64,000 bases of DNA from Amoebophrya sp. A120 (taxonomy: Eukaryota; Protista; Dinoflagellata): positions 2,786,158-2,850,157 of the forward strand of contig CAJINV010000013.1 of NCBI GenBank assembly GCA_905178155.1, written 5' to 3'. The notes under the pieces were generated by a model that saw only the letters and a program-made list of their open reading frames with translations, made no database searches and had not been told where the DNA came from. The number at the start of each line of letters is the position of its first letter. The first letter of the stretch is position 1. Of this stretch, positions 106 through 64,000 are shown in pieces. Position numbers and translations under genes: made by a program.

Positions 106-1205
106 CTATCGTACGTCATGCTCTTCAAGTTCAAAATACATGACTTTATTATACTTTTTGTTGTTCTGTCGTTCGATGATGGCGGTCATGAAGTAACCGA
201 TGGACCTTAGCGAGAACAGGTTCGCTTCCAGGGAGATGTAACTGAGACTCGGGCACGTGGTGATGATCTGGCAGATATCAAATGCAAAAATGTCTGGGTC
301 TGGAAAAATGCAAGATTTGTCATGCTTAACAGACTGCGCAGCTAAATGCAAGATTTGTCATGCATATTTCTCATGACCCATGATGCCTGTAATGCATGAC
401 CTAGCATCGCAAACATTCAAAGGGCTTCCTGATGCACGTTCCGCATGAGAAATGCCCTGTCAGTGCAGCACAAACGGCGCCCCTCTTGCTGGTCATGCAA
501 TACAAAACTTTTTAGAGTCCAAAAACAGCATGACAAGTTGCAATCTTCCAGACCCAGACATTTTTGCAATTGATAGCAGATGTCCGCACAGGAGTCCATG
601 GTCAGCTGATTTTTCGACAAGTCGAGCGTGTGCAAACTCGGGCAATCGGTGAGGACTTGCGACAAGGTGGAAAACCCAATATCGGAGATGGCGGACCCCC
701 GCAGCAGTGCCTGCTCCAAGTCCCGCTGACGGAGCCACTGATCCACGGTCCGGATGATTTTGGTCGCGGCTTTGGCCGCCTGCTCCGGCTGCCCGTCGTC
801 CTCGTTCCGCTGCAGTTTCGCGGGCTTCCCCTTCTTGTTCTTATTCCCATCTCGGTCGTCTTTCAGCTGCAATCCGAGAATGATGTTCTGCGCCTCGATC
901 TGCTCCCGCTTCGCGAGCTCCGCGTCGACGGACTTCTGCAGCGTGACGATTTTCGCCTTCAGCTGCGAAATCTCATCGTACTGGTGCTGCCCGGTGGACT
1001 GCTGGGCCGAGAGCTTTTCCGAAAGCTCGGTCAGCTCCTTTTTCAGAGCCTCGTTCTGCTCCTCAACCGGGGCCATCCGAGCCATGGTGTGCGAGTTTTT
1101 TTCGATGTACTCGGGCCAAACAAAATTAGTTTTTTCAACCCTCACGCAAAAAACGATAAAAAAAAACGTGTGGGTGAAGAAACACACAACTGTCACGCTT
1201 TTCAA
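106..1205 (-). CDS. Coiled-coil plus leucine-rich-repeat (RNI-like) protein, spliced; both ends uncertain
   Basis: LRR units CPSLHTLDLSKNQL and CPSLSYISLEANLF join in frame (ADIC|QIITT) when element 276-575 plus one TSD is removed. Confidence 0.65.
276..575. mobile_element. Introner family A (300 bp, includes a 38-bp internal insertion)
   Basis: TIR TATCAAATGCAAAAATGTCTGGGTCTGGAA / TTCCAGACCCAGACATTTTTGCAATTGATA; TSD GCAGA at 271-275 and 576-580. Confidence 0.95.
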
Positions 1206-2593
1206 AAAAGCGACGACAGAGTGGCCTGCGAGGAAGTAGGGATTGCTCGAAAGATTGAGATTTCGTATATACTTAACAGGAGTCCTGTAAAAATTTAACC
1301 GTGGATTAGCAATGTTGTTCTTGACACGGACACGATACTAGAACTACACGGATGTTTTTTACTTCACACTTCTTTGTCTTTCCCAAGATGTCCAAGGCAT
1401 GAGGAACGCGAGTCTAAGTCTAGCTTTAGCATTTTTACGACGTAAACCTAGTGTCCTGGTTCTAATTCTCTTGCACGACGGTGTTCTTCCAGGACGAAGT
1501 TTCGACATGGTAGATGGTGGACTGTACGACGAGATAGTGGAACTTCTGAAGTACGAGGATCTTCTGCAGCTCCGTCCAGAGGTGGCACAAGAACTGTACG
1601 ACAATCACACGCACGACCCGCACGGTGCAATACAGAACGATGGAGGGAAAAGAAACGACAGGCCCGTACTATGTTGTAAATAACTGACGATGTTTTCACG
1701 ACTGCCTGGTTTGTTCCCTTGATGTTCTAGTAAACGAGATTACTCCGTGCCGGAAGAACAGAATATGAGCACGACGAGGCACAATTTCGAAGATGATCCG
1801 AACCACGCCTGTAGCTCCTTGCATTCTTCTTTTCGGCCAAGAGCAAGTGCCCCTCGAGGTGGAGCCTCAAAGCCGCGACTAATGTACCTACACGCTCGTA
1901 CTTGTTTGTGCGCAGCTATTTTCATTATGGTATAGGTCCGAAAAGTTGCAGGACGAGAGCAACTCACTTCTAAAGTGCGGTCCTTTTCACTATACAGTCC
2001 TGCTCGCCATACTTACTTCTTCCTTTATCCCGATCTTTGTAGCTCTCCGGCGCGGTCACCACGCCCTCCACGCGCTCCGGAATGTAGGACAAGGGTGTTT
2101 CTGTCGGATCGATCTTATACCTGCGATTTTTCGACAATATGAACATCTTCGAATTCTCTTTGTACAACGAATCACGACACGGTCGCGCATAAAGAAGGCC
2201 GATGAAGATGATGCAGATCAAAAACAGTATAAAGCAAAATCATCAACTTTAGGATGTGTGGGGAGAAAAGACAGTGCTTCACGCCTCACAGCTTTGTTTC
2301 CCCCAGACTCTTCCCCGAGTATAAAGCAAAATGATTCAATTTCAGGCATAGTGAATTTCAATGATACAGCAAGTCGCTCCAGTCGTATTCCCCCTTGTAG
2401 CCTTTTTCGGAAAGTTCGGTTCGCTTTACGCCACGGTTCAGCTCGACAAAGTCCTCTGGCTGCATTTCCTGCCCGAAGTAGTAGGTGCCTTTAGTAGATG
2501 GTATTGATAATCAGATACGGTCGTAGGTAGTATGCATTTTTTTTGCATATGCTCTTTCACAGAAAACAGAGTAAAAGCTGCACGCATCACAAG

Positions 2594-4217
2594 CTAAGAC
2601 CACAAATGTTGCAATGTAAAAGAAGCATCATCATCTACCCCCCTGCTGCTTTTACTATCTATACCTGTATTCCCTTTGTCCGTGTTGTATTCGTTTGTTT
2701 TCTTCGCATACTCGAAGTTCTTTTCCCTTTCTGCCATCCACTCTTCTTTCCCCGCCGACATCAGCCCGTAGGTCGAAACCAACTTGTCCTTATATCGTTT
2801 CGCCTGCGTCTTGTTTGCGTAGACCGGCAAAATCACCTGCTTGCCCTTCTTCTTCCGCTCGACCCGCTCCTCCCACTGCTTCGCGTACTCTAACTTCTGC
2901 CGGTCCCGCCGCTCGAACTCGGTTTCCGCCCCGATCGCGCCCATCGGGTAGCCGTCGATGTCAAACGGCGCATCCGGCCTTCTGCCGTAGTTCGTGTGCG
3001 GCTTCACGGTTAACTTCCCGTTCTTCGCTTCGTGCGTCCGCACTTTTGACGCGACCATGACGAAGGGCCGGTTGCTGTCTTTCGTCAAAATTCGGGAACC
3101 CTGCGGCACGGACATGGCTTGGTATGTGGACAGCTGGGGGTCGAGCAGCTTCTCGATCTTCTCCAGCGCCGTGGGCTCCTTGTTCGGGTCAACCACACGT
3201 TTCGGTATCGGCGGCTGGATGGAGTCGTTTCGTTTGCCCGCTTGAAAACAGTCCCCGAAAGACTTCTTCTTCACTTCATCTGCTATCAGAACATCGGACT
3301 TGGTCTTGATGTCGAGCTGTTCTTGCTGCGTTTCTGCTCTAGTACCTGTTTTCGCTCCAGCAGTTGAGGAAGAAGTTGTTTTTGCCAATTCCTTTATCCT
3401 GTTTTGCTCGGAAACCGGAAGTTTGAAAATCATCCGCGGGTCGTTTTCCTTAATCCTCGACTTCTCATCCCCGCCATACACAATCCCCCCGCTCGCGAAT
3501 TTCGGCGCGTAGTCGAGTTTTACGGGCGGCTTCTTCCGGTTTTCGTCCACTTTCGCCTGGTATTCAATCTGCGTTTTCAACCGGTTTTTCAAGTCTCTTT
3601 TCTGCTTCTTCTCCTTTTTCTTCTCGTATTTCACTTGATCCGAACCGACAGAAGAGGGGTATGCAATCGCAAATATCGATCTGGGTCTTCTGGAGAAAGA
3701 ATGACACCTTAAGATCATGCTCGGCTAGCAGCTGTGTAGATCTAGAACTAGATTCTGTCACATGCATAAGGCGCAATAAACTCCAGCAGGGGTGGCTTTT
3801 TTGTTATATGCCCAATCGCAATTTCTCATGCGCCGAAGCAGGCCGCAACGAACCCACGCATTCGCATAGCAGCGAGAAAATTTATCATGCGTTGCTGTCT
3901 GTCTACTCAGGTCTCCTGCTTGCCACTCCCATTGTAGCATCACAAGTTCTTTCCAGAACAAAACCAGACCGATTTGCATGTGATAAGGGGGGCGCCGTGT
4001 CGATGTTGGGGACGTGCTTCCACGGCACCTCGTAAGGTTTGTCCGCGGCGTTTTTCGTCTTGCCGCTCAGCGTGAACTTCCGTCCCGTCTCGAGCGCCTT
4101 CAGCCGGGCAGATTCGAGGATGGTGTTCTGGTACACAGAATGGGCGAGTTGGCTGTATTCGTCGGTATCCTCCTGGTTCGCCCAACAGGGCAACCGGTTC
4201 GGCAAGGGGCGGTACAT
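2594..4217 (-). CDS. Uncharacterised basic protein, two exons
   Basis: ORFs 3903-4217 and 2594-3718 join as DTAPP|SSVGSDQ on removal of 3660-3985 plus one TSD. Confidence 0.7.
3660..3985. mobile_element. Degenerate A-like introner (326 bp)
   Basis: Starts TATGCAATCGCAAATATCGATCTGGGTC, ends CCAGACCGATTTGCATGTGATA; perfect TSD AGGGG; frame restored. Confidence 0.8.
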
Positions 4218-4851: not shown

Positions 4852-6613
4852 TTACAGTTCCGACTTCTTCTTTTTTTTCGTGCTCTTCGCCTTCCCAGTG
4901 GTAGCACCACTCTCTCCGCCCGCAAACGCAGTGAGCAAGTGCGTGTCAAAAAACTTCTCCATTCCCTTGTCCTCAGCCTCCTTCGAGGTAAATCGTTTCT
5001 CGGCCACCTCGGAAATTCAATTCGGATACATGTCTTGAACGAAATGTTATGGAAGTAGAAGAACGACGCCTAACAAAATGTGGACCCAAATATTGCTTTT
5101 CTGAATGACCGCAAGATAGTTAGAGCACTTCCCATTTTTTTATACCACTTCCCACTTTGGCGCAACGTCTTTTTCACCAACCTGGTCTTCCAAGAATTGG
5201 ACCACGAAAATCCTGCCAGTCTCGTACTTCTTGTCTACTCCAACTGCCACGCTATCCGAGGTGGACCCGGTTGTACTAGCTTTACTCGTCTCTACTCCCG
5301 ATTCATCGTCCAAACTGAACTCGCTGACCAGGTCCAGAGCGGCGGCCAACTGGCCCACGTCCGCCTGTTTCGCCTTCAGCTTGACCTTTTGTGCAAAAAA
5401 GAGTCGGGAGATATCCACGGAGCTGGTCATGGAAAACATGGCTTGCAGCTTTTTCTTCTTCAGATTCTTCTCCTTTGCAAGCTTCTCCTTCGCGTTCCAA
5501 ACCGCTTGCCGATACGAAAGGATCAGCTGATCGTCGTCTTTTTTCCGCTCCGGAAAAAGACCAATCACCTGTGGTTTTGATATGAAAATCGTGTTCCTGT
5601 AGTTGTCATGACAACAAACTACAAAACAACGGCCTCAAAAGAATTTCGCACAGGACGAGATATCTTGTTAGATAGACTCAAGTATCAAAAACCGTACCCT
5701 GATCTTCCCGGCCATCGCGGTTGTGCCGCTTTTCTTCATCCCGAAAAACTTCGTTTCCAGCTGTTCCTTCGACTCTAATACCTTCGCGAAGTGGATGTTG
5801 TTCGCCCCGTAGTACTTCGAGAGCAAAAACTTGTGCCCTTCCGGCGCGCCCTGGTACAGGGACAGCGCCTTTTTGAAGTCTTCCGTGTCGATGACTACCG
5901 GGTCGCCAAAGTTCTGAAACAGGATGTTGGTGGGCACCTGGTTGGGTTCCAGCCACTTCTCCGAAAACTCCTTTTCCATGTCAATGTCGACCATGCCGAA
6001 CGCGATATTCGTGTACTGCTATGGATTGCAAAAATGTCTGGGTCTGGAAGAATGCAACTTGTGATGCTATTTTTCGAATCTAAAAAAAATCTGTATTGCA
6101 TGAGCAGCAAGAGGCGTCCAGTTTTTGCTCCGTGGAGAGGGCATTTGTCATGCGGGATAGGCATCAAGATACCCGCAAAAAATCTGTCATGCTAGGAGAT
6201 GCATTACAGGCATCATAGCCCATGCGAAATATGCATGACAAACCTGGAAATCTTCCAGACCCAGACATATTTGCAATCCATAACCGCCACTGCCTCGCGA
6301 ATTCCGTGTACTGCTGGTAAATCTTCGCGTTCATCAAATTTGGGTGCGCCCCGGAGTAGAAGAGCAAGTACGCGCGCTCGTGTTTGTTCAGAAACTCCTC
6401 CGGCTCGTCGCAACAGGTACACCCTTTCACCTTCACGCTCAACTGCGTCACTTGGCTGTGGTCGTTTTCGCAGGGCAGGGCGGAGGTCAGCAGGGTGTTA
6501 AACGCAGAGAGAAAGAACATCACTGTGAGAAGTGCGACGGGAGCTCTTGAGGTCAGAAGACGAAAAGAAGTGGGAGAGCGGGGCACAAGCCCTCGCTCAA
6601 AAACGACTGACAT
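4852..6613 (-). CDS. Probable ER thioredoxin-fold (PDI-like) protein, multi-exon
   Basis: Hydrophobic N-terminus; thioredoxin-like segment YLLFYS...IAFGMVDIDMEKEFSEKW..VPT; C-terminal KSEL; one introner plus apparently canonical introns. Confidence 0.55.
6020..6282. mobile_element. Introner family A (263 bp), opposite orientation to 276-575
   Basis: TIR TATGGATTGCAAAAATGTCTGGGTCTGGAAG; TSD ACTGC/ACCGC; joins FARQW(R/Q)|YTNIAFG. Confidence 0.93.
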
Positions 6614-7547: not shown

Positions 7548-10500
7548 TCAGTCCTCTTTCGCCTCCAGAATTTCGTCGAGTTCCTTCGTTTTCAGTTCCT
7601 TTTTCTCCACTAGCGTTTTGATCTCCTCCTCTGCCGCTTTCCCCATCTCCTCCACGGCTGTCGCGACCGCCTCGGGGGAAGCGTCTGCAGCGACGTTTAA
7701 CTTCTTCAACTCCTTCGCCCGGTTCTCCAGGTACTTGGTCACATTCTGTTTCAGCTTTTTCAAAGTTCCCTTCGCCAGAGGGGTCTCTTCCTTCGTGTCG
7801 ACATTCACACTTGCATATCGAAAGGAAAAATCCCCCCTCCCCATATCGAAGCGGAAATTTCTGTTGCTGGATTTGTGTACACAAATCAGCGTTGTATTGC
7901 AGGAAGGCATTGCGACCAGATCCCCAGGCTAGGTAGGGGCGTATCGGTCTAGTTGGTCAGCATGGCAAATGCCTCGCCTTTAGGCCCAACAGCATGACAA
8001 ATCGCTTCCATAATGGGGGCGAAGCTTCTGCCCTTGCCTCCTTGCAAGACAGATGTCATTTGTGACCTCAAATCAGCAACGCAAATTTTCGGAAACATGC
8101 CTTTTTGATATGGGGAGGGGGAGTTTTTCCTTTCAATATTGCAACCGGCAACCCTTCTTCGTCCCGCTCCTTCGTAAACGTCATGTCCTCCCTATCCTGA
8201 GTAAAAACGTCCCCACACCAGAGTTGTCATGCGACTTTGCCATGACAGGAACATTTGTGATGCGCAACCCCACGACAGGCATTTTCAATCGTGTTTGGGA
8301 AATTGTAATGCTGTAAACAGGATCAGCAGATCGATTTGTGATGCGGCGTTCCTTGCTAACTTGCACTACCTTACGGACTGAAACTTGTCATGCGTGACTC
8401 ACAAAACTCCTAGGTTTGTGTTGCAAAATCCCCATCCTGACTCTGGTGTGGGTACGTTTTTACTCAGGATACTCCCGGGCCAGCAGCCACGCTTCCTTCG
8501 TCGCATATTGCAAGGCGTCTTTGCTCCTTTCCAGCTCCTTCTTCTTCGATCCGATCTTCGTTTCCAGCGACTTCAACTCCACCAGCAACTTTTTCTCCTG
8601 CTCCTGCGCCCGCTCCCGCATCAGCGCATTTGGATCCCGCAAAGTCCACTTCCCTTGCGATCCGGTGGCGCCGGCCGCCATACTCTTTCCGTCCTGCAAT
8701 TCCACACCGAGCTTCACCAAGGTTTTGTCGCGCAGGTCGTCGCAGAGGTCCAGCGTTTGCTTCTGTTTCGCACTCATCGCCTGCTGCTTCACCTCGTCGC
8801 GGAAGCTAACCAGCGCGTCCACGAAGGGCGCGACCAGTTCCTCCTTACTGACCGCACCGGCTCCACTACTCGCGTCGTTCTCGCCCAGCTCGTCGGACCC
8901 GGCGAAGACGCCGAACAGCTTCATGTATTTTGTGACCAACGCGGCGGCCTTGCGCAGGATCAAAACCCGCGGAGACCTTTGCTGCGTCTCCATCGAACTC
9001 ATGTACACGTTGCACTTTTTGATCATTTCACTCAAAATCTGCAGCACCTTCGGGTAGTTGAAGTTGTCCAAAAGCGCCTCGTGGATCTCGGCGTGGGAAG
9101 TCTGGATCATCTTGGACAATTGCTTTTCCTCGTCGCTCCAAACCTGCTCGGTGGCCGACGGGCAGCCGGCGTTCCGGATCTTTTGCTTCACGGTGCCCAT
9201 GAACGACCGGATGCGGTTGTCAAACTCCTGGGCCGTCAGCATCTGGTCGCTGCTGTAGTTCATTTTCCGGTCCCACCGCTGCTGCAGAAACGCGATGCGG
9301 AGCTGCGTCGCGGTGGTTTTCTCCAGAATTTCCTTGATAGAAAAAAAGTTCTTCAGACTCTTCGACATCTTCAGCCCCTCGATGTTCAGCGTGCCCGCGT
9401 GCGTCCAGTAGTTGCACCACTGCTGCGTGCCGTGGTAGCACTCGGACTGCGCCATCTCGTTGGCGTGGTGGGGGAACTTCAAATCCTGCCCCCCGCCGTG
9501 TATGTCCAGCCGGTCCCCCATCAAATCGGACGCCATGACGGAGCACTCGATGTGCCACCCGGGCCGCCCGAGGCCCCAGGGAGACTCCCACCGCGGCTCG
9601 CCGTCCTTGGATTTTTTCCACAGAGCGAAGTCTCGCGGATCCTTCTTCTCGACCGCCAACTTCACGCCCAGCGCGCCCTCGCCCTCCTGCATCGCTTCGT
9701 CGTCGATTTTGTCCTTGTTGCCCTTGGGCCCGAGTTTCGGGTAGTCGTGGTCGTTCTTCTCGAACTGTTTCGTGTCAAAGTAGACGGAGCCGTTGCTCTC
9801 GTACGCGCCCCCGGAAGCGACCATTGTCTTGATGAACTCCACAATCTGCAAAGTATAGTTGGAGGAGACACGAGGTTGATCAGATTTTTGTTTTTCTGAA
9901 ACCATTGAAATAAACCTGTCCTCCTCGTCGTGCCAGCACATCTACTCCTACTTCACAGCGAATAAACTACACGAGAAGCCATTGATTGTGAGGATTCAGA
10001 CAGAACTACTAGTACCTCCCAAGAAAAATCATGCTATCAATCTAAACGTCTGCAATCATCTCGTCTCCGTCTCCCAGCACGACCTTCCAAACAAAAGTAC
10101 TAAGCCATACCTGATCCACATACTCGGTGACGCGCGTGATTGCGTCCGGCGGCCGCACCCCCAGGGCGGCCATGTCGTCCCAGAAGCTGGCTTCGAATTT
10201 CCTCGCGTGGCGCTGAAAGACCATGTTGTCGGTGACAGCGCTTCCCACGGTCTCGTCGAGCCAGTCCTTCAGCTCGTCGCCGAGCACCGACGCCGCGGCC
10301 TCGAAGTCCTTTTTCTCCAACGCCACTCGCGTTTTCTCCGCGGTTTCGAGGAAAGTTTTCTGCTTCAGCTTGAACTTTTCCAACTTTTCCTGCTGTTCCT
10401 CCTCGCTCGGCGGCTTCCACCCTTTCGCGACCGCGGTCTCGATCTGCTGCTGGATTTCCGCGACTAGCTTTTCCTTCTTCGTCCGAAAGTAGTCGTCATT

Positions 10501-11896
10501 CTTCTCCGATAAAATCTTTTCCACGTCCTGGACAAAAGTCGCGCCGTTCGCCGCTAAGAATTTCCCCTCTCTCTGCTTCTTCAAATACTCCGCCAGCAGC
10601 TCGTTCTTCCGGGCGCGGAGGATAATCTTGTCGTCGATGTATCCTGAGTAAAAACGTCCCACACCAGAGTTGTAATGCAGATTTGCAAAGACAGGAAGAC
10701 TTGTCATGCGCATCCCCATGAAAGGCATTTCTAATCGTGTATTGGAATTTGTGATGCTGTGAACAGGATGAGCAGATGAATCTGTGATGCGACTGCAGTT
10801 GCTAACCTGCACTACACTGCGGAGTGCAACTTGTCATGCGTGACTCCCAAAACTCCTAGGTTTGTGTTGCAAAATCCCCATCCTGACTCTGGTGTGGGGA
10901 CGTTTTTACTCAGGATACGATGTCGGTAATGTTCAACTGGTACAGGACTTCGTACCCGAAGTAATCCTCCATCACTCGGCGCATGATGTCAAAGGTCAAG
11001 TACGCCCTCGCGTGCCCCAAGTGTGCGTGGTCGTAGACCGTGGGACCGCACACGTACCAGTTGACTCTCCGTCCCTCGTGCGGCAGGAACGGCTCGACCT
11101 CGTCTGTTAGAGAGTTTGTCATGCGCAGTCCGGAATAGCCCAGGGGGAAGGTTTCCGGGTTCGCGCCGACAATCTTCTCGTAGACCGCCGGCACGTGCCA
11201 CTTGAAATTGTCATTTTTTTCCACCACGAGCGGGGCGCCGCAGCATCCTCCACGGGCCACCATTCTGTTCGAGGGCGACGTTGTTTGTGGGACCAAAACC
11301 GCGTTGGAATCCACGTCGACAATGTTATTTGTCCGGGCAGAAGGGGAAAACTTCGTGCTTGTTCCGGCGGTGGTAGCTGGTGCGGAAGGAGAATTGGTGT
11401 TACTCTCCTGCAGCAAGTGCTTCGCAACAGCCTGATCCGCGGTGGTGGTTTTGTCTTGCGCCTGACCCATCTGGTCTAAGGTCTCCTTGTTTGCCATAGG
11501 AAAATGGATGAAGTTGTAGTTGGAAGAGCTGCGGTAATTGTTCTCGCTGGTATTGATATCTTCTGAGGTAGTTGATGAGGATGTTTTCCCTGTATTTGTT
11601 GCGGCTGCTACAGAAGCTGCATAGGTCGAGGAAATAGTGTTCCGTACACTCCTAAGGTAGTAGTTCAAGGTCGCTGTTGTAGTGACTTCCCGTCGTTGAT
11701 GTGAGTGAGAAGATGTTGAAAATGTGAATGTCAACGCTGACGAAGAAAATCTGCCGCTGGCGAGAACGAACTTGGAGTGACTTTTCGCACTCGCAGTAGC
11801 AGTTGTGGAAAATTTTCTTCTTGTAGCGGGAGAAATCGTTGCGGTTCTAATTTTCTTCAGGGTAAACGTGGCTGCAGCGCTTTTGGCGCTCCACAT
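7548..11896 (-). CDS. CARS: Cysteinyl-tRNA synthetase (class I), 5 exons; alternative start at 11497
   Basis: YVCGPTVYDHAHLGHAR (HIGH), NITDI|DDKII, WESPWGLGRPGWHIECS, DIHGGGQDLKFPHH, KMSKS; canonical GT-AG intron 9846-10110; three introners. Confidence 0.97.
7816..8138. mobile_element. Introner family C (323 bp)
   Basis: TIR TATCGAAAGGAAAAATCCCCCCTCCCCATATC; TSD TTGCA. Confidence 0.93.
8193..8471. mobile_element. Introner family B (279 bp)
   Basis: TIR TATCCTGAGTAAAAACGTCCCCACACCAGAG; TSD CTCCC. Confidence 0.95.
10640..10917. mobile_element. Introner family B (278 bp)
   Basis: Family B TIRs; TSD CGATG; splits the CysRS NITDIDDKII motif. Confidence 0.96.
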
Positions 11897-24814: not shown

Positions 24815-24899
24815 CGACTTCGCCCTGTCCTTGTCGCTCGACTTCGCCTTGTCCTTGTCGCTCGACTTCGCCTTGTCCTTGTCGTTCGACTTCGCCTTG
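24815..24899. repeat. 24-bp tandem repeat, about 3.5 units, probably coding (KAKSSDKD on the minus strand)
   Basis: CGACTTCGCCTTGTCCTTGTCGCT repeated head to tail. Confidence 0.9.
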
Positions 24900-37300: not shown

Positions 37301-37576
37301 GTTCTGGTTTTCCTCCCTTTCTTCGAGAAGATAGACGTACTGCAGGACATCATCCCCTCCTTCTCCCACTGTACTACCAGCAACATCTTCGCGCCCCCTG
37401 TCGTCCCATTTCCACTTCGGATTTGGGTCGACAAAAAACGCAGGTGGCTTTACGTCGCTGTCCAGAAAATTTTTCGCCGAGATTAGCTGGAGCTCGTAAA
37501 AAGTTTCCTCAGAACCATCGTTGGAGGACAACACGCCGCCGGGTAGCAGTGTACCACCCCAAGCATCGGGAAACAT
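31371..37576 (-). CDS. Large (about 2000 aa) low-complexity uncharacterised protein
   Basis: ORF 32330-37576 joins ORF 31371-32333 through GT-AG intron 32425-32636 (TAAGR|SSLSGP...KEVNIEK); upstream exons possible. Confidence 0.7.
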
Positions 37577-49925: not shown

Positions 49926-52900
49926 TCACTGTGCCCCCGCCTTCGCGTTTTTAACCTGTTCCGTGAGTGCCTCCAATTTTGGTTTTTCCACCTCTTCGGT
50001 GAATTTTTCCGGGTTCAGAAACCGTTCCTGGTCCCACAAATACCGCTCGCGCATCAGCTCCTGCAGTCGCACATTCCGCTTGTCCGACTCTTTATCCCAT
50101 GCGTTCTCGAACACGTCCAACTCTTTGGTCTTGGCGTCCCCCTTCTTGACTAATCGCTTCCCCTGTTGCCCGCTCCAAATCTTCTGCAGTTCCAGCAACC
50201 TCTCCCGGCCGGACTGCTGCATGCCGGTCTCGCGCAATTTCTGTTCCACTTCCTCCTTAGTGTAGTGCCCCTTCTTCAGCAAAGCTGCCCGCTGCTGTTC
50301 CACGCTCGGGTTGGCCGCCAACATGCGGCCGATCTCCTATCGTAAAGAAAAATCCCCACTCCCCATATTGAAACCGCATCCGTCTGAAAATTTGTGATGC
50401 ACATTCGTGACCTCAAAGCTTGTCTGTCTTGCAAGCAGGCAAGTCCAGAGAGCCCCCTGCATTTTGCAGGCGGTTTGTGATGCTGTTGGGCTTAGAGCAT
50501 ACACGTTTGTCATGCTAGGCGGCTACGTCAAAACCCCTCGGCCGAGGCTTGACATATGCCTGCAGTCCTCTACTGCAAGACAAATCTGATTTGTGTACGG
50601 AAATCCAGCATCAGAAACTTCGTTTCGATATGGGGAGGGCGGATTTTTCCTTCTGATATCTCCTCGACCGTGACGAAAACGTTGTTGGTGCCGTCGAAGT
50701 ATCCAGTGCAAAAAATATGTCTGGATCTGGAAGAGCGCAAGATTTGTCATGCTGTTCCGGCATGACTCTGAGCTCTGTATGGCGTGGCCGCGAACAGCTC
50801 TCTTGCCTGTCATTCAAAAATGCAGTTGCTCATGCGGGATACGTAACACAGAGCCACGAAAAAACCTGTCATGCTTGGCGGTGCATTACAGTCTGCCATT
50901 TGTTCGCTGACTTGCATCACAACTTTCCACACCCCGACATATTTGCAATGCATACGAAGTCGGGGCGGACCGAAAAGTCCATGCCGGAGGACTTTCCGGC
51001 GGTGTTGTGCATCCTTGCGTTGAAGAACCACTCGGCACGGGGGTAGTGCTTGGACACGTAGGTGCCGAACTTGGTGTTGTAGAAGATCGGGGTGGACACC
51101 CGTCCGTTCCCGGTCACCATCTGCTTGCGCGTCATCATCACGCGGTGCCACATGGACTTCAGAATCGCGGTCGATTTCGGCTGGTTCGTGATTTCGTTCC
51201 GGATGATCAGGTTGAACGACGTGTTGGCCTCGAGAAAATCGGACAGAAACAAAAACATGTCGATGTTCTTGTCTCCCTTGATTTTCGCCCACTGCTTCTT
51301 CGCGGACTTCTTCATCTCGTTCGGCCTTTCCTTGATTTCCAAATCCCCGGTGAACAGTTCCAGCCCCTCGTCGTTCGGCGCCGGGATCAAGGTCATGGCG
51401 CAGATGTCCGTGTGCGACCCCGCCCACAGCTTTTGCGTTTGCTCGTCCTCCTGGTCCGACTCGCTGTCGTTCTCCGCGCTGGCCGCCTGCGCGAGAGCCG
51501 CGGACGTCACGGGTGCGGTGGGAAACTGGTCGCGCCGTCCCGGGTACCTGAGCATAGCAGAAGATTGGTTGTTCTTCATCTCGTCTTGATAGTTCATCCT
51601 CATGCATAGTAGTTTTTCGTACTTTTAGTTTTACACAAATACTGCACAAAAGATTTTTGCACGAAGTAGATGATCTTCCGCGTGGTCATCTTTTTGGCGA
51701 TTATTTCATGCACTCGATGCATTTATTTCCGCAGACTCTACTCCTCAAATCCGATAGTACAAGAGGTACATCAATTATTATGTCCGCTATTTATACCACA
51801 AGTTTCGACTGTAGCCCGACTGCTGGTCATTTTCGAAATCGAAGAGCCTGACCTCCGCCAAGTACCGCAGCTGCTCGTCGATGTCTTTCTTCATGGACTT
51901 GGCTAGTTGCGAGAAAATCACCTCCTCGACCTTGTTCGTCGGCTGCAGAAACGAAGAGTTATTTCGGCCATTTTGGGCGACACCACCGCTAGCGGTTGTA
52001 GGAGCCGTAATGTCGATCATGTATTCGACGATGTTTTTTCTCCACTCCGCCTCTGCAAGCTCCTGGGACCCTTGCGTTTCTTCCTCCGCCGAGTCCGGCA
52101 AAAGCTGCTGGACCAATTGCGCGTTACTCCAGTTGGTCTTCATGTCCAGCAGACGGGCCTTCATGGTGTCCAACATGCTGGTGACCTCGAGCTGCAGTGC
52201 CTTCAGCACGTCCTTTGCGAACGTGTGCGAGGCTCGCAAGTAGATCGGCATCAGTTCGTGCAAGTGAAACGTGGGCTCTCCGGTGGGGACTTGTTTGTTG
52301 AAAAGCTTCGCCTGTTCCTTGCTGTAGTTCGAAAGCTTTTCGAGGAGCGACTTTTGCAACAAAGCCGGGACGGAGTCTTCTGCGAAAGTTTTCTGCTTCA
52401 ACGTGGTCAAGCCGCTGCGTTTTGATTTGAGTTGTTCACATGAAGGCAGTAGTAGATGCATGCAAAACGATACAGTTTTGGTTTTTGTCGTGAACAAGAC
52501 CACGCATGTTGCCGAGGGAGGAACGTTTGTGATGTTTGAATTTCAAACTAAACTAGTATCAACAAAACTCCGTATCAAGGATACCTCTGCACGCGGACTT
52601 CCATCAATTCCCTCAGTTCGGCAATGCGCTTTTTCTGCATCTCCCCCTCGTTCTCATCCGGAAAAGGAAACCAGCGCACATCGATGCTCCACTTGTTATC
52701 GGCAACCTTCTGGCCCTCGGCCTGCTCCCCCGGAGGGACGATCATGGCCCAAATGCTGCTCGAAGGGTCTTCGCCGAAGGCCTCCGCCATATTCGGCTGC
52801 TCTAACAGCATGCGATAGTTCAGCATGATGCCGATTTCCTGCTGGATCCAGCTGATGCCCTCCAGGAAAGTCAGGCTAAACGATTCTATCGCCTCGGAAG

Positions 52901-53620
52901 CGAGATCACCTTGAAAAACGCCACCACCTCCTCCCACCAGGCCCCCACACAACAATCCGCCGCCGCAAAGAGAGCTTGCAAGAGAAGCAATGGAGGCGGC
53001 GGGGGGCTGCTGCGTATCAAAATGCAACAAACACGAACACCACAGGTACTAGTACAAGCGGCTGGAGATAAACGTAAAATAAAACTTTTAGTTCCCGTTG
53101 ATGTAGTAGTGTAGAAGACCTGACACAGTGGTCGCATATCTTATCGTCTGAATGCAAACCTTCCAAATATGAAATTTTGCTTTGGGTATGGCTCGGGGAT
53201 GGGATGGTCGTCGTGCTTTTCCAACTTGGATATGTGATCGTCTTTGTGCTGTAAACCAGCGGCTCCTTGACCTGGAACGGGAAACGCTTGCGAAGACCTG
53301 TGGAAGTTTTTTGTGCGTGGTTTTTTCTCACACTTAAACTTGAACGTCGTCACCACGCCGACTTTTCGTCGACGATCGTGCTCCTAATACAAATTTTTGC
53401 TTTCACTTTCACTGTACTTAGTTGTACCTTCTCCCTTCAAGCCCACCAATCCCTTTCCGCCCTTCATCGGGCCGCCCTTCACAAGCAGCTTTGCCAAACT
53501 GGTGGCGTCTTGCACTTCCAGAACCGGAAATTCATATTTCTCGGTCGTTGCAGCTGGTTCGCCAACCACCGCCGCTGCACCTCCGCTACTCAAAGCAGCG
53601 GCGGTTGCGGACTTAGCCAT
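49926..53620 (-). CDS. Uncharacterised multi-exon protein
   Basis: Series of minus-strand ORFs; VRPDF|DGTNNVFVTVEE|IGRMLAANP joins across two introners. Confidence 0.55.
50338..50658. mobile_element. Introner family C (321 bp)
   Basis: Family C TIRs; TSD TCTCC. Confidence 0.93.
50700..50954. mobile_element. Introner family A, diverged (255 bp)
   Basis: TATCCAGTGCAAAAAATATGTCTGGATCTGGAA...GACATATTTGCAATGCATA; TSD CGAAG. Confidence 0.88.
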
Positions 53621-55399: not shown

Positions 55400-58300
55400 T
55401 CACGCCGCCGCGACGTTCAAGCTTTCCATGGCTTCCACTAGTCTTGGTGGAATCGCCAAGGACGGGTATTTTTCCCGCAGCGTTTTCAAAATCTCCATGG
55501 ATTGCTGCAACAACGGGCGGCCGGAAGCGAAAAAGATTTCCATCACCTCCAGTTTCTCCTTGAACTCGCGGTTTTCGTACTTTTCCACCGCTTTTTTGAA
55601 CTCCTTTATCGAAGGAAAAAACTGTGTTAGTGTAGGTCTCTTGGGAAAACAGCATGACAAGTTTGTCTGCCATGATAGGAAAAACTTGTCATGCGCAGAT
55701 AGGGTGGGAAAACACGTAGGAAGCGAGCCTATCATGCATGTGAAGCATGACAAGCGTAACTGTTTTGCATTTTCTGCATCACGGACTTACACTTACAGAG
55801 TTTTTTTCTTGCATATCCTTGTTTTCCGTCACGATTTTTCGATACCGTTCCTCGGTCTGCGTCACGTCCTGCATCAGTTCCTGGGCAACGTCCAAAGCCT
55901 CCTTGTCCTCCTGCCGCAGCATGTGCAGCTCCTCAATCTGCTCCTGTTGCAGCTCCAGTTTCGGCTCGTACTTGTTGATCAACTGCTCCAGTTCGGCGTT
56001 TTTCAAATTTGCAACCTCGATCTGGTCGTGCAGCTGTTTTATCTTTTTCCCGAAGTCCATAGTATTGGAGGAGTTGTTGTTCGCCTGATCCTCGATCTGC
56101 TGCTTCAAGCGCTGGTTCTCCGCGAGGAGGGCACCTTTTTTCATTTGTGATACGTGTCTATATCGTTATCGAGCGACAGAATTTTTGCATGTTGACACAA
56201 GTTTCTACTTGCAGCTTTAACAGGTCATGCATAACAAAAAAAATCTAAACCTTGTTTCTTTCCTTCCTTATGGTGCCTTTCCAGCTCCTGTATCTGACGG
56301 TGGTTGTCTTTCTTCAACTTATTGATCACCGTTTCCATGCCCTCCACGATGGCCTCCAAGTTCTTCTCTCGCTTCGACTGTGGCTGCGCTTTGTTCGACG
56401 AGGAACTTGCACTACTATCTCCCGCTGTTTTACCCGAGGAATTCCTCCCCTTCGGCGAGACCGGCTGGTTGCTCTGGTTGATCAGTTCCAGTTCCCGGAT
56501 CCGGTTTTGCATGCGGTTGAATGCTATGAATTGCAAATATGTCTGGGTCTGGAAGGTCATGCTGTTTTTGCATGACGCAGATGGTCTGGCATGGAAGCTC
56601 TGGCATCACAGGTTTCGAGAAGCGTTCCCAATGCCGAATCCGCATGGCAACTCCCTGATTTTGGTGACAGAAAGTGGGCATCTTTTGCTGCCTATGCATG
56701 AGAGGTTTTTCTGTGTTCTGAAATGCGCATCACAAGTTTGTATTCTACTTCCAGACCCAGACATTTTTGCACTTGATAAATTTCGTTTCCCACTGCGTCT
56801 TGTCGAACAGGTATTCCATGGTTTTCATCTCCTTCTTTTTCACGTCGGATTCTAGTACCCGGATCTGCTTGGCGTAGTCCGCCGTTAAATCTTCCAGCTT
56901 TCGCACTTTCAAGTTGATTGTCATGTATTCCTCCTCCCGCTGCGCCCAGTCGTCCCCTAACCGGATCGACTTCACCCGCTTCAACTCGAACTTCACCTGC
57001 TCGCACTATCAAAAGGAAAAATCCCCCCTCCCCATACCAGAACAGAATTTCTGATGCTGCATTTGCGTACACAAATCGGGCTAGTCTTGCAGTAGAGTAC
57101 TGCAGACATATGCTAAGCCTGAGCATAGAGGTTTTGACATACCCGCTCAGCATGACAAAAGTCTACGCTGTAGGACCAACAGCATTACAACCGGCTGGCA
57201 TAATGAGGCCGACTCTCTGGAGTTGCCTTCTTGCAAGACAGCCAGGATTTGTGATCACAAATCTGCATCACTAATTTTCAGCCGGCTGCGTTTTTAATAT
57301 GAGGAGGGGGGATTTTTCCTCACAATACGCACTGCTGGTTCACCTTGTCCAGCTCCTCCTGCAATTGCTTCGAGTTCAGCTTCTCCTGCTCGAGCAGCTC
57401 CTTCGCGTCAATGGTTAATTGCTTTTCCATCGTCTCAATTTTCGACTCCAACTCGAAAATTTGACTGCGATACTGGTCCGTGGTCTTCAACTTTTCAATC
57501 TCCGCGTTGCTGGACTTGTTCTGGTGGTGCTCGAGCTCCGCTTGCAAGTTCTTCACCTGGTCTTCCAACTTCTTGGAGTTCTCGCGGATCTCGTTCGCCT
57601 TGCTATTCTCCTTGTTGATCAGTTGCACTTTGTGAAATTCCTTCTCCAAGTAATCCTTGTGCTCCTCGGCCTGCTTCAACTGTTTCCCGAGGTTCTCGAC
57701 CTGCTTCTTCAATTTGCGCGCGAGCTGCTGGTCCGCGGTTAACGTGGCTCCTCCTGCTTTAATACTACTCGAGCCCTTGTTCGCAGCTTCCTGCTCCAGA
57801 GGTGGGAGGTTAATATTGTTCTTTGCCGATTTCATATTCGCGCTTGACGTTATCCCTCCTGCGATCTTCCGCAGGGGGAAATCGCGGAGAATCACCTTGG
57901 ACACCTCGTCCGCTAAGCACATCCCGTTTTTATCTAAAATCACCAGCAAGTGGAGCTTCCGCACGGTTTCCAGCTTCAAGTTCAGTTGCCGGGCGAGATG
58001 TCCGCAGAGACTGTGGAACAAAACTCTCCCTGTTCGGAGGGGGTCGAGTTCCTTGAGTAGTTTTATTAAAGAGAGTTTCTGCTGGTTCAACGCATTGTGG
58101 ATTACCGACACCGCCGGCATCGCCTCCGTCCACTTACTCGCGTTGTTATCGTTATTACCGTCGTCCTTCGCCGCTTGAATGGACTTTATCAGGAAGTCCA
58201 ATTTCAAGAGGTTCTGCTGGTTCATGTTCGGCTGCTCGCTAGACGAGGCTCCTGCTGCGTAGTCTTGCTTCAAGACCAAAAACTCAAAAATCCTGGAAAT

Positions 58301-61300
58301 CGCAGCATCCTCCTCCTTCTGCTCGGATAGGCTCTGTGGGTTGGTCCCCCTGCTCGTTATCGTCTGCACCGCTTTCTTAAATTGCGCGGCGGTTAAAGAT
58401 TCTAACCCCCGGTGGTCGAATTGCGCGAACACGGAGCGGATGGACAAACCCGCGCCGGGGTTTTGCTTCATGTAGCTGTACAGCCGGGATTTGATGATCG
58501 GCAAAGCGGAACCCGCTAGCCACTGGCTCGCTTTCTGCCGCGATCGGCCAACCTCGGCTTCCGGGAAGGAGAGCAAAGAGGAAGAAGAAGCGCTGTTATT
58601 CATCGGCACTTGTTGTTCGGCACTTGTTGCGCCGTCGGCTGACGACGAAATTGAATTCGCACTCGTCGCCCAGGACATCTCCACCACAGCGTCGGGGTAC
58701 GCGATTTTTCCTTGCAGCTGCTGGTAGGACAACATGCCACTTCCCGTGTCCTGGTCCAACACGTTGAACAAGCTGGAGACGTCCGCCTTGGAGACACTCA
58801 CCCCGGAGACCGAGCGGAAGAGATTCAGATTTTCGAACAGGTTCTTGAACTCGACGTAAGACAAGAACCCGTCGCGGTCCTCATCTGCCTGGGTGAAAGC
58901 GTCCATCAAGCTGTACTTGTTTTCTATCAAAGTGTTCCTCAGAACCTGGATCGTGTTTTGCAGTAGGTGCGAACTTCTGATACGCCAGATGAACTCCTTG
59001 CGTGATTTGCTCGCCTCGTCCACGACCTGCAGCCGTTCCCTTTTGCTGAACTCCTGCTTCTCGAACTGGAGTTTGTGCAAGAAGTGGTCCAGGTCCGGAT
59101 ACGTGAGCCTGTCCGACTCGGCGCCCGACAAATCTGAGGATGGTGGGAGCGCACTGCGGATTTCCTGCTCCGCAACTTCCTCCTCGATCTCGACGGAGGA
59201 TGCTCTTCCAGCTGTTTCCCCCATTTTACTGCTCGCAGAAGTTTTTCTCCTCTTCAAAATCTTCGCCCGGATCTTCTCAAACAAGTTCGGGAACGTTTCC
59301 CCGCGGAGCTCTAAGTCGAAATCTCGGAACTGCATGAACCCTCGCGGATAGTTCATCTTCTTCAGATAGCGCTGCGCAACCTCCTCGAAGCTGTACTCCA
59401 GTAGACCGTCACTGTATCTTGGTTGCACCGTCTCCGCGCCGTTCGAAATGTGCACCGTGGGCGGGAGTTCGCCGTTGACGAGCTGTTGGAAGTTTTTCGC
59501 GAAAAGAAAATCCTCCCCGCCGGGGAACTCGTCCTTCGCAGAGTATTTGTCGAACAACTTCCGGATGTTCAACTTTTCCCTCGCGACCTTCTTCCGTAAC
59601 TGCGCAAACGGCCCCTGGTCCTTCGACTTGATCACCATCGAAGTGCTACTGCTGGAGGAACCTCCCGGCGCATTCTCATTTTCCGCTTTACTCTCTGCTT
59701 CTTTGTGCAGGAAGTTCATCATGTGCAGGGTTTCTTTCTCCTCGGATAGCAGCATCTGTTTCGCCTCGTACTCCCCTCGAGAAGTTAAAAAGGCAGTATC
59801 CAGGAGCCAGACGAACTCGAGCTCCAGGGCCGCAAGGGTTGGGGGCGCAGCAGCGTTTTTGCCTTCCACCTCTGAAGATGGCACATCACCGCTGCTGCTA
59901 GATGAGAGCACCTTGTTTAGAACTTCCTGGACCAGAACCTTCGCTTTCTGTTCGCTCAGAAATTCAAAAAAGGAATTGATCACCTGCTCCAAAATCTTCA
60001 CAGTTTCGTCCGAGGTAATCACCACTGTGTTTTGTGGTTCTACTTCTTTTTCCAAACAGATGGAGAAAACGACGCGCAGAGCCGTTCGCAGGGAAAACCC
60101 CCGCAGCATGTTCTTGCCAGAAAGCGGGTCGACGGAATTCCCTAGCAGCCCGAAGTGGAAGTCCGTGTTTTTCAGGGGGACAGGATCCATTTCTTCAAAC
60201 ACGAACTCCTGCGTCGCCTCCGCGTCGGAGCTGGACTTCGCACTCGCGTTCGCCACTTCCAAAACGGCAGCGAGCCACTCGACGTATTTTACGGCGTTGT
60301 CGTTGTCCACGTCCAAGAAGCTCGTCAAACTGTTGCCCTTCCCGCTGCCGTGCGTGAAGACCTGGTCTAGCTGCTGCGCGGTGATCGAGAGCGGGAGTTG
60401 ATTCAACGCTTTTTGCACTATTCGGAGCGGCAATTTGCCCGAGATAGAATTCTTGCTGCTCCTGTTCACAATTGTGTCCACCGCTTTCAAAATTTGCAGG
60501 AACGAAATTCCCTCGGTCGTTAATCGGGATCTAATGGAGGAAAACAACTCGCCCTTTTTCTCCGCCTCGGACAACTTCGACCACTTGTGATTTTTCTCCT
60601 TCTCCAAATTCGCCACCTGCTGCTGCAGTTCCGACGCCTTTTGGTCCTCTACTTCCAGTTGCTGTTGCCCACTACTACTAGCCGCCGCTCCCGCACTTCC
60701 GCCCGCTTCCGTTTTCATCTTCGCGACCTCGGCCGCCATCTGCTCCGCCTCGGTGGAAGATTCGTTTTCCTTCAATTTTTCCAGCAATTTTGTCATCTCC
60801 TGCTCGAATTTGTCCGCTTTCGTCCGCTCCCGTTCGTAATTGATGTTTGACTGGATCAGGTCGTCCTTTGTCTGCAGCTATTACAGTGAAAAGTGCCTCC
60901 CACCCCTCAAATTGCAAAAATTTTTGATGCGAGGTTTCCAAATGAAAACGTTTTGTCATGCATGAAAGGAGTATAAATCTTTCTGAGGCAGAGCCTAGGC
61001 GTGTATCGCATCGCTTGCATGACAAGGGCCGCTTTTGCTGGGGTCTTTTGCAATACAATTTTTTGCTGCTCACGATTGGAAACCTGTGATGCTAATAGAT
61101 GCACGAGGGCGAATGTTTCATTTGGAAAGGTTTGCAATACAAATGCTCCCAAGTTCGGGGGTGGGGGCATTTTTCATTGTAGTAGCAGCATCTCCTTCTC
61201 TAGACTATCCAGTTTCTTCGACAAACTCGTCGCTTTTTCCAAGGATTTATGCCGAGTAAAAACGTCCCCACACCAGAGCTGTCATGCAAATCTGCACGCC

Positions 61301-64000
61301 AAAAAAGTTTCTCATGCGGAGCCCCATGAGAAGCGTTTTCTAGTCGTGTTTTGGAGTTTGCGATGCTAGAATCAGCATGATATGCTAGGTCTGTGATGCT
61401 GCTGAACTAGCGCAACAGGATTGCACTAGGAGGGCAAACTTGTCATGCGAAACAGCGAAAGCTGGTTGATTTGTCTAGCAGATTCCCCATCTTGACTATG
61501 GTGTGGGGACGTTTTTACTCAGGATAAGATTCGTTTTTCACGTCGGTGGCAAGTTCCACTTCAGTCGCTAACCGTTTCGCCCGTGTCAGGAACAAATCCT
61601 TCTTCTCTTGCATCTCCATGTCAAAGATTTTGCTCAGCTTATCCTGAGTAAAAAACGTCCCCATCCCAGAGTCTTCATGCAAATCTGCATGCTAAAAAAG
61701 TTTCTCACGAGGAGCCCCATGCGCGGCGTTTTCTAGTTGTGTTTTGAATTTGTGACGCTCGGAGCAGCATGATATGCTAGCTCTGTGATGCTGCTGAACT
61801 AGCTCAACAGGACTAGACTACGAGGACAGGCGTGTCATGCGAAACAAGCAAAGCTGGCTGATTTGTCTAGCCGATTTCCCATCTTGACTCTGGGTTGGGC
61901 GGGACGATTTTACATATGATACAGCTCGGCTAATTTCTTCTTCAACCTCACGTTCTCCGCGGAAGCCGCGCCAGCCGTTGCGTTTTGCGCCTTCTGCAGG
62001 TAGTTTCCGCTGCGCTTCGGGTGGTTCGCGGATTTTCGGAGCTCGTCGTTTTCCGCTTCGAGGTAAAACAGTTTGTCGACCAGTTCCTGCAGCTTCGCGC
62101 CCGAAGAAACGTCGACAGAACCGGTACTACTCCCCTTCGGACCTTTTTTGGTCGTTTCCAACGCTCTTAAATCTTCGGATTGTCTCTTGAACAGAATCTC
62201 CAGCTTTTCCTTTTCGATCTTCAGTTTTGGGTAATCTTCGTTCTGCTTTTTCGTTAGCTCGAGCTGCTTCGCGAGAAGTTCGTTCTCTTTGCTCGTTTTG
62301 TCCAGTTTCTGGAAGAATTCCGTCGCCGTCACCGAATTCGGCTCGCCGTCGACGTTGACCTTTACCATGGCGCCAACCTCTTGCAGTCTCTTCTCCAACT
62401 TGATATTCACGGCGGACAGTTCGGTGATATCATGAAGAAAAATCCCCCCCATATCAAAACGGAAATCTGTGATGCAGATTTGTGGTCACCAATCAGCGTT
62501 GTCATGCTAGAAGGGAAAAGATACGGACTGTAGTGCTGGGCGGCGTGGGAAGGCCTTGCATCTTCAGCATGACAGGAGGCAGCTGGAGGTGCGAAACAGC
62601 ATGACAAATTGCTTGCAAACGAGGCCACAACTGCGGCTCTTGGTCTTCTAGCAATACAAGGCGATTTGTGTACTCGAATACAGCATCACAAGTTTCGTGC
62701 TCGATATGGGGAGGGGGGATTTTTCCTTTTGATAGGCGAGTCGGGTGTGAAATCGCTGCTTTTCGTTCGCCCGGTCCTCCTCCGAGTCGAAGAGCTTCTG
62801 CTTCAGCTCCTCGCCGTCTGTGATCACGGACAGTTTCGCCTGCCGCTCGGCGGACGCTTCTGTCAGAGGTGGTTTTTGGTCTGGTTGTTCTTTGGTGTCA
62901 CTTTTTCCTGTCGTGGAACTCGAGGCTTTTTGTTCCTCTGCTGGAGTGGAGGAAGAGCTCTTCTCGTCTCTCTTCCCTTGTTCAACATCCACAGCTGCGG
63001 GAGTTGTGGAGGCGTCGGTCTTCTTCTCCCCGACGACGACCTCGGCTGGGTTAATGTCCGTGAACGCTCTCGGGTCTTCCCGCAATAAGTTCGAACTCAT
63101 CACCAAGTCGTGCTTTGTTTTCGCCGTGTAGGTTGCCTCGTCGTCGATGTACTTCGATAAGTATTTCAAACCGTCCTCCAGTTTATCCAGAAATACCTCG
63201 TTTTCCTTCTCCTGCTGTTCTTTCTTCTCCTTATCATCGTTCGGTTTTCTATCCCCTCGGCTGTTCTGCATCGTGGTCAAATCTGTCAACAGATTCTTCT
63301 GGAACCACTCGATCCTGCTCCGGAACAGCTTGTAGCGTTCCGCGTCCCGCTCGAAGATCCGCACGTCGTTCGCCAAATTTCCCGCCTTTTCGATATCGAC
63401 CGTGTGTCTATCATTCAGCTTCTCAATGATTTTTTTCAACTCCTTCGCCTCATTCTCCGAAAACTGCATTTTCTGCTGCATCTGCTCGGTCTTGGCATTC
63501 GCCTGGTCCTTCTCCTCCACGGCCGTTTCGATCTCCGCGCAGAGTGTCTTCATCCGCTTTTGGAAGATTTCCGTGCGGTCGGAAAGCTCCATCTCGAAGA
63601 TCTTTGTCGCTTCAGCGAGCTGCTTCTTCACATGTTCAAACTCCTGCACGGACACCTCCTTCTTGTGCGAAGAACTTGGAACGTGGGAGGAGGAAGTAGC
63701 TTTCGTATTTCCAGCAGATTTGCTACCCTTCTCCTTCCCCGCCCCGGCGAGGGCGCTGCTACTCGCCGACGGTGCCACGCTGGCTGCGCCTCCAGAAGTT
63801 GCAGCTGCGCTCAGCGCGAGCAACTCCTTCGCCAGTTCCTCGTTCTTGTGCTCCAAAACCACCACTCGCTCCACCAAATCCCGAACGCCGCGCCCGGCGT
63901 TGAGCGAGTCCACGTTCTGCGCAAAGGTCTTCGAACTGGCAGAGCTGCCGGAAACGGGGAGTTTCAAATATTCCAGGCCGGCGAGCTCCTCCTGCAGCCG
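55400..64000 (-). CDS. Very large coiled-coil protein with several EF-hand-like motifs; 5' end beyond the window
   Basis: DAFTQADEDRDGFLSYVEFKNLF, FNVLDQDTGSGMLSYQQL, FLDVDNDNAVKYVEWL; exons separated by seven introners. Confidence 0.8.
55607..55815. mobile_element. Introner, candidate family E (209 bp)
   Basis: TIR TATCGAAGGAAAAAACTGTGTTAGTGTAGGTC / GACTTACACTTACAGAGTTTTTTTCTTGCATA; TSD TCCTT; joins ENK|EFKKAV. Confidence 0.88.
56525..56778. mobile_element. Introner family A (254 bp)
   Basis: Family A TIRs; 3/5 TSD AATGC/AATTT; frame kept. Confidence 0.9.
57007..57327. mobile_element. Introner family C (321 bp), opposite orientation to 50338-50658
   Basis: Family C TIRs; TSD CGCAC. Confidence 0.93.
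60879..61184. mobile_element. C-like introner with diverged interior (306 bp)
   Basis: TATTACAGTGAAAAGTGCCTCCCACCCC...GGGGTGGGGGCATTTTTCATTGTAGTA; TSD GCAGC. Confidence 0.88.
61248..61526. mobile_element. Introner family B (279 bp)
   Basis: Family B TIRs; TSD GGATT/AGATT. Confidence 0.92.
61640..61921. mobile_element. Introner family B (282 bp)
   Basis: Family B left TIR, degenerate right TIR; TSD CAGCT; interior resembles the neighbouring 61248-61526. Confidence 0.9.
62428..62734. mobile_element. Introner family C (307 bp)
   Basis: Family C TIRs; TSD GGTGA/GGCGA. Confidence 0.92.

Follow-up and report, generated by a model that had tools for sequence, protein, structure and literature searches.

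An internal paired motif shared by dissimilar introner families of Amoebophrya sp. A120

The introners of the dinoflagellate Amoebophrya sp. A120 have been described as elements with TAT-N7-AAA ends, short direct repeats and non-canonical splicing (PMC7789003, PMC12130899; the papers cited here were available in part, and statements about them refer to those parts). The genome paper (Farhat et al., PMC7789003) gives no family-specific end motif for them, and the parts of the Farhat and Gozashti papers that cover these introners describe no internal motif, pairing or phasing. In other organisms, Ds1 shares with Ac just its ends and a few hexamers (PMC3260210), and Lemi1 binds the subterminal repeats of the Emigrant miniature inverted-repeat transposable element (MITE; PMC1636448). 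In this work we analysed 64,000 nucleotides of A120 (assembly GCA_905178155.1, contig CAJINV010000013.1, positions 2,786,158 to 2,850,157; hereafter the window), whose genes are broken up by 28 elements, 209-343 bp long, that are bounded by TAT...ATA inverted ends and flanked by a 5-bp target site duplication (TSD). They are the introner elements that Farhat et al. described in 2021 (PMC7789003), from the same organism and with the same ends, repeats and splicing. Their interiors share a short motif arranged in pairs, and, judging from the sequence, it is rather likely that this array is bound, as double-stranded DNA, by the protein that moves the introners (a transposase or a helper), in phase with the ends, and selects the copies that can be mobilised.

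A motif common to families with dissimilar interiors

Counting both strands, the window holds 89 exact matches to TGTCATGC or TGTGATGC (TGT(C/G)ATGC). Of these, 79 lie inside the 28 elements, where dinucleotide shuffles give a mean of 1.5 and a maximum of 7 (1000 shuffles), and 81 lie inside elements when four old copies are counted too. Outside the 28 there are ten exact matches against 3.4 expected (maximum 8, 100 shuffles), two of them in old elements. A position weight matrix (PWM), derived like the top k-mers from family interiors, gives 20.6 sites/kb within elements and 1.2/kb elsewhere in the window. The fuller site reads WYTGT-SW-TGC and is a near palindrome (TGY-NWN-RCA). An earlier note, made from the letters of the window, had claimed that families whose interiors cannot be aligned share arrays of this motif; the enrichment check that it proposed bears this out, and the interiors are indeed dissimilar, since consensus pairs from different classes that resemble each other at z>4 fall from 83 to 3 of 112 once the motif is masked. 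Nearly all of the likeness between the interiors of different classes comes through the motif, and some classes are related even with it masked (G-H, z=8.4; E-F, z=11). The note had also seen several motifs in each of four elements, which holds for 55607-55815 (three), 62428-62734 (five) and 8193-8471 (four) and fails for 43495-43756, which has one exact match (six with one mismatch); its claim of both orientations in each fails at 8193-8471, where all four face one way. Persistence in diverged copies stood for the decayed copy at 48547-48855, the other three that it named (12778, 50700, 60879) being members of other subfamilies and not decayed.

The window was compared with 139 loci of one related metagenome assembly, picked by the family-B end pattern, and family B is therefore over-represented in them; no exon homology between the window and these loci was found. 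A finder of terminal inverted repeats (TIRs) and TSDs, which recovers 22 of the 28 window elements, gave 291 elements in the 139 loci, with at least one exact match in 261; a looser finder, with zero matches in shuffled sequence, gave 55 more, 51 of them with an exact match. The resulting 374 elements fall into 11 end classes (A, A2, B, C, D, E/F, X7, G, H, I and J; family letters other than A, B, C and E are labels coined in this analysis), and the motif is present in all 11. In IMG/VR no family B or C end was found. After detected elements had been masked in related loci L001-L078, the motif was still about 10-fold enriched, in both orientations, and many of these matches belong to further families or to decayed copies, which makes the motif a working detector of both.

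The 28 elements make up 12.5% of the window, which has four old copies in addition. The TSD is perfect in 22 of the 28. Each end consists of TAT, about seven variable bases and a run of A; three window copies have an altered first or second base, and classes G, H and I keep TAT and lack the full A run. With TIRs, a fixed TSD, short length, no coding sequence and dispersal in both orientations, the elements have the features of MITEs or non-autonomous TIR DNA transposons. They also show what defines A120 introners, a direct repeat of 3-5 nt at the exon/intron boundary and, in contigs that are probably RNA, removal with non-canonical ends. Their lengths match those of A120 families filed as 'TIR DNA, Unknown' (about 106, 149, 209, 252-261, 278, 305 and 317-321 bp, among the matches listed; PMC12130899). 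No sequence preference was found at the target sites, canonical splice sites are not supplied by the TSD, and a GT-AG intron is possible in any register at just 10 of 225 insertions. The interrupted genes include one for cysteinyl-tRNA synthetase (CysRS), an exon of which matches an A120 protein at 100% identity, and a leave-one-out strand model makes the minus strand coding for 28 of 29 gene segments. The elements and old copies are as follows, the strand being unspecified (.) for every one.

276..575: family B introner (subfamily B0.0), TSD GCAGA, three exact motifs
3660..3985: old B-type copy (B0.1-like), nhmmer E=1.8e-22, contains the stray motif at 3937
6020..6282: family B introner, TSD 4/5
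7816..8138: family A introner, missing from contigs together with one TSD (inferred from record offsets)
8193..8471: family C introner
10640..10917: family C introner, skip of 10635-10917 in contigs
12778..13042: family B introner, subfamily B0.1
14118..14439: family A introner that begins AAT, with an altered first base
18977..19252: family B introner, subfamily B0.3
19371..19665: old G-type copy, TSD 3/5, nhmmer E=1e-11
20231..20486: family B introner, subfamily B0.5
20561..20839: family C introner
22176..22501: family A introner (A5.0)
22567..22832: family B introner (B0.2)
26900..27113: old G-type copy, nhmmer E=5e-14, contains the stray motif at 27072
27150..27492: old C-type copy
28731..28992: family B introner
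39580..39889: family A introner (A8.0)
39937..40198: family B introner
43495..43756: family B introner, one exact site, six at <=1 mismatch
47242..47503: family B introner, skip of 267 in a contig (element + 5)
48547..48855: old B-type copy that begins TCT and has TSD 2/5, skipped all the same (314, element + 5), three exact motifs
50338..50658: family A introner, skip of 326
50700..50954: family B introner (B0.1), skip of 260
52904..53232: remnant of a very old element whose ends have decayed, without an exact motif and with a single weak PWM match (8.3)
55607..55815: family E introner, skip of 214
56525..56778: family B introner (B0.3), TSD 3/5, skip of 259
57007..57327: family A introner, skip of 326
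60879..61184: introner of a separate end class (C6.0/A2)
61248..61526: family C introner (C2.1)
61640..61921: family C introner (C2.1)
62428..62734: family A introner (A5.0) whose exact sites, at offsets 41+, 73+, 140-, 172- and 256-, display the 32-bp pairing

Two regions of the window with the look of canonical introns, 39280-39550 and 41190-41470, contain several motif-like sites, the strong ones all sense, and are possibly very old elements turned into GT-AG introns. A 24-bp tandem repeat array at 24793-24912 is unrelated to the elements.

Pairing, phasing and conservation of the sites

Across nine consensus architectures, same-direction sites are paired 31-33 bp apart, with 18 such pairs where 2.2 are expected; the best 3-bp window in 5000 random placements held at most 10. 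Every one of the nine has a pair of this kind, and about seven are independent, since A4.0 and A5.0 are related, as are E and F. In held-out classes, with the PWM fixed beforehand, four pairs were found against 0.32 expected (P=0.00025), and three of the four classes (G, I, J) were positive. Consensus spacings are 32-51-32 plus an opposed pair at 33 in family A, 31-54-39 plus pairs at 32-33 in family B and 31-32 in E/F/D, while the family C consensus is made of six same-direction sites at 31, 48, 33, 49 and 31 bp, that is, three pairs, with no strong opposed site. The upstream member of a pair is mostly TGTGATGC or TGTCATGC and the downstream member is more degenerate; the spacer between them is weakly conserved, with 33% identity across classes against 26% in the null. 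Family J reduces the arrangement to 109 bp, two ends and a single 32-bp pair (one copy aligned; four copies of 109-112 bp listed, at L009 259-367 and in L024, L060 and L104), and is a candidate minimal element. In the family A consensus the spacer of the end-proximal pairs is itself palindromic, ATTTGTG-NN-CACAAAT, that is, two inverted half-sites. A dyad like that of tyrosine recombinases, with a 7-8 bp spacer, was considered and rejected: it occurs in some families only, and 5-bp TSDs point to a DDE enzyme.

The sites are also placed regularly with respect to the ends. The outermost one lies 37-40, 45-51 or 60 bp from the end in all 26 representative ends, and a mixture fit, which was preferred because Rayleigh P values are unfair on a bounded range, gives three modes at 37.9, 48.1 and 60.0 (Bayesian information criterion 149, against 170 for one mode). 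Among B subfamilies this distance moves from 45-47 to 38. A periodicity of spacing, which the earlier note had proposed to look for, was found in the 31-33 bp pairs and in the same-direction distances up to 130 bp, whose best phase among ten periods tried was 10.4 bp (R=0.42, a figure largely due to the 31-33 peak). Steps of about 10-12 bp and a pair distance of three turns are what would be expected for proteins seated on one face of B-DNA, and the spacing of TnsB sites acts with a 10-bp periodicity (PMC10201428). As in subterminal repeats, a short repeat inside the TIRs is kept across dissimilar non-autonomous families, with both its sequence and its spacing constrained.

In 15 subfamily trees (260 copies), changes per site were 0.0095 in the motif core and 0.036 elsewhere on internal branches, and 0.037 and 0.077 on terminal ones. 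Base-matched core/other ratios were 0.35-0.36 for shared alleles and 0.59-0.71 for singletons. Five alignable old copies of the window, measured as excess divergence over the family baseline, had 0.174+/-0.044 in the core, 0.160+/-0.034 at other sites and 0.146+/-0.028 in the ends. Constraint is thus strongest along lineages that went on to be copied, and no trace of it is seen in immobile copies. Per-site conservation, by which the earlier note had wished its motif to be judged, gives a divided answer accordingly: on internal branches the core changes at about a quarter of the rate of other sites, and the five old copies lose the core at the rate of its neighbours.

Splicing, mobilisation and the rival explanations

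Seven joints in contigs that are probably RNA skip exactly the element plus 5 bases, the same contigs skip GT-AG introns, and three further elements show the same pattern; the RNA status of these contig runs is predicted, for one sample, the runs not being recorded as RNA, and the raw RNA run X9 has 11 reads on the window. Orientation in genes is balanced in B0.0 (17:19), B0.1 (15:12), C2.0 (9:10) and C2.1 (8:7), and F3.0 stands at 7:0 (P=0.016 uncorrected, one of 22 families). A single orientation of family C, suggested by six of six copies in the window, is ruled out by 17:17 overall. The earlier note had linked motifs in both orientations to excision independent of orientation; excision does occur both ways round, but family C, with its one-way arrays, is found in genes in both orientations, so this independence is not due to two-way motifs.

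Three skipped introns whose TSDs are mismatched (48542-48860, 52899-53237, 56520-56783; three cases, from contigs only) allow a single common splice register. On the sense strand it places the start of the intron one base upstream of TAT and its end four bases downstream of ATA, which gives an N-T-A-T 5' end resembling canonical GTAT with a relaxed first base. The ends of the intron at 52900-53233 fold into a long G-U-rich sense-strand stem, which is not beyond the shuffle null. In six of six old elements (3660, 19371, 26900, 27150, 48547, 52904) the terminal duplex is stabler in sense than in antisense, by 2-8 kcal/mol, the sense advantage in 26 younger elements being 1.6 +/- 5.7 kcal/mol on average; this hints, weakly, that the ends are under selection at the RNA level.

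The earlier note had left the shared binding site to a transposase or to a splicing or RNA-binding factor. A splicing factor that binds the motif and marks non-canonical introns for excision in place of a missing U1 would agree with the U1 small nuclear RNA not being detected in A25 or A120, according to the accessible parts of PMC7789003, with the rarity of insertions that permit GT-AG and with a few matches in canonical-looking introns (2584, 39521, 41232, 41243). One factor could read a near palindrome either way round, core singletons are somewhat depleted, and the old copy at 48547 retains its three exact sites. However, sense and antisense motifs are conserved equally on the transcript (212/3824 and 238/3825 changes, P=0.22, in a strand test that the near palindrome weakens), and family C carries its one-way array in both orientations. 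The core is lost as fast as its neighbours in old copies, and contigs of three runs from one sample skip the non-canonical intron at 52900-53233, which matches no family, lacks an exact motif and has decayed at its ends. A 9/10 sense bias of stray motifs in the window was not reproduced in related loci (76 sense, 55 antisense). Neither action on one transcript strand, as far as the weakened strand test tells, nor retention after insertion and need for excision (five old copies, one motif-free skipped intron) was found, and a splicing factor of this kind is quite unlikely. Nested stems formed by opposed motifs, in RNA, as the earlier note had also suggested, or in single-stranded DNA, are scarcely credible. 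Opposed sites do recur 14-15 and 17-18 bp apart, and core bases have the higher predicted frequency of pairing (0.74 vs 0.58), but identity is no more frequent between opposed neighbours than between same-direction sites (0.17 vs 0.18), the covariation check of nine dyads was negative (8 compensated, 9 doubly broken and 190 singly broken cells), and family C makes do with a consensus free of strong opposed sites. G-U and A-C counts in sense are 61 and 68, in a test that is weak, being equally flat on the terminal repeats intended as its positive control. Thus the motif is probably not a splicing or RNA-stem signal, and it is likely the ends, not the motif, on which the splicing of these introns depends.

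At the DNA level, common descent of the families by internal duplication of one ancestral unit of about 32 bp, with a motif now functionless, would explain the shared TAT-N7-AAA ends, the slightly similar spacers and the classes still related after masking. Neutral descent would erode motif and spacer alike, however, and both the fourfold contrast on internal branches and the collapse of cross-class similarity under masking speak against it; the rate contrast already refutes most of this explanation, which we regard as very unlikely. A host DNA-binding or chromatin protein that occupies the array outside the transposition chemistry, for instance opening or protecting the element, so that copies recruiting it spread better, would leave the same DNA-level signs as a mobiliser. 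No transposase is reported in A120 in the available parts of PMC7789003, and IHF is a precedent for a host factor within a transposon end (PMC10201428). Against it, the phasing to the element ends suggests contact with an end-bound complex, and a motif so rare outside elements would be unusual for a general host factor; we consider such a protein unlikely.

A docking array for the mobiliser is favoured by the fixed 31-33 bp pairing, by end distances in helical steps and by a constraint strongest on changes that were propagated. The common protein-binding site of the earlier note is supported, and of the branches that the note left, the evidence favours this one. Two units of the protein would share one face of the helix, phased with a complex bound to the ends, and the paired units would help to bring together the two ends of an element of 110-340 bp. 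If only copies that keep the array are copied again, diverged families would keep it and immobile copies would lose it. The enzyme would probably be a retroviral-type DDE integrase of the Ginger or IS3EU/GingerRoot kind acting in trans, as the type of ends and TSD and a published A120 family suggest. The array would then serve movement and the ends splicing, as two separate jobs.

Several points weigh against this docking array. Binding of the motif by the mobiliser is a prediction, and Farhat et al. (PMC7789003), in the parts available, found no transposase in A120 and rejected general mobilisation by transposases. No transposase or integrase was found by Pfam in 60 of 105 selected open reading frames (ORFs) of the related loci, and no cognate autonomous element or transposase in the 139 loci. 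Four long end pairs (0.97-6.2 kb) considered as autonomous elements turned out to be clusters of ordinary elements or host sequence. Within the architecture, class D has mostly variant sites (exact match in 21 of 44), the class H consensus has no 32-bp pair (present in 2 of 10 copies), family B also has a 39-bp spacing, and common ancestry contributes, as the spacers are slightly alike across classes. As regards the timing of selection, the decay test comprises five old copies and the motif-free skipped intron is one case. Core singletons are still just 0.6-0.7 of those at other sites and the core/other ratio stays at about 0.45 on long terminal branches, which may reflect unsampled master lineages, yet mild post-insertion selection also fits. 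Finally, in 25 end-decayed copies of the related loci the core excess was 0.071, below the 0.136 of other sites, although 0.047 of this gap is also seen in 47 end-intact copies; a mild role of the motif after insertion is left room by these data.

A bolder version, possible but doubtful, is that one protein, host-encoded or an overlooked remote integrase, moves all A120 introner families by reading a two-part code, the helically phased internal sites and the outer TAT end, while ignoring the family-specific inner repeats; the same end would supply a 5' splice site of the form N-TAT, lacking the G. Should this be true, a single intron-making machine with a minimal substrate of 109 bp would stand behind tens of thousands of non-canonical introns. 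In any case, a shared site with transposon-like geometry argues for one common mobiliser acting on DNA, and the 32-bp pair and the 109-bp family offer bait for finding this protein, so that the search for it becomes directly testable.

Comparison with known systems

Introners and subterminal repeats were already known; what is new here, as far as the literature searched goes, are the motif, the same-direction pairing, the steps in end distance and the minimal 109-bp family. Motif and spacing are undescribed in the accessible portions of that literature (text and supplement of PMC7789003, PMC12005148, PMC11282704 and bioRxiv 2020.10.14.339549; figures, theses, bioRxiv supplements and most subscription papers lay outside the search).

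Among eukaryotic integrase-like elements, IS3EU and GingerRoot have TA...TA termini as the A120 elements do, but usually make 6-bp TSDs instead of 5-bp ones (PMC10045372, PMC6839031), and the A120 elements are not filed under them for that reason. Ginger1 and Ginger2 differ by their TG...CA termini. An 808-bp A120 family, family 38, is described as 'Ginger; 5-bp TSD, TA/TA termini' with homology to Copia/Gypsy ORFs (PMC12130899), a description that makes it the obvious candidate for a relative of the mobiliser. The TnsB arrays of Tn7 and of CRISPR-associated transposons (CAST) resemble the array described here in having repeated internal sites, asymmetric layouts and a spacing that follows the helical pitch (PMC10201428). 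They are bacterial, and the likeness is one of analogy only. Tn7 makes a 5-bp TSD, and has longer binding sites and TG...CA ends.

The closest parallel lies in the AAACGG repeats of Ac/Ds and the repeats of Emigrant/Lemi1. Unlike in those systems, the inner end sequences of the A120 elements differ between classes, and the sites, though few, extend through the whole element and are paired at a fixed 31-33 bp. As in those systems, however, non-autonomous elements share little with their partner beyond the ends and short internal repeats, and in Ac/Ds and Emigrant/Lemi1 such repeats are bound by the transposase.

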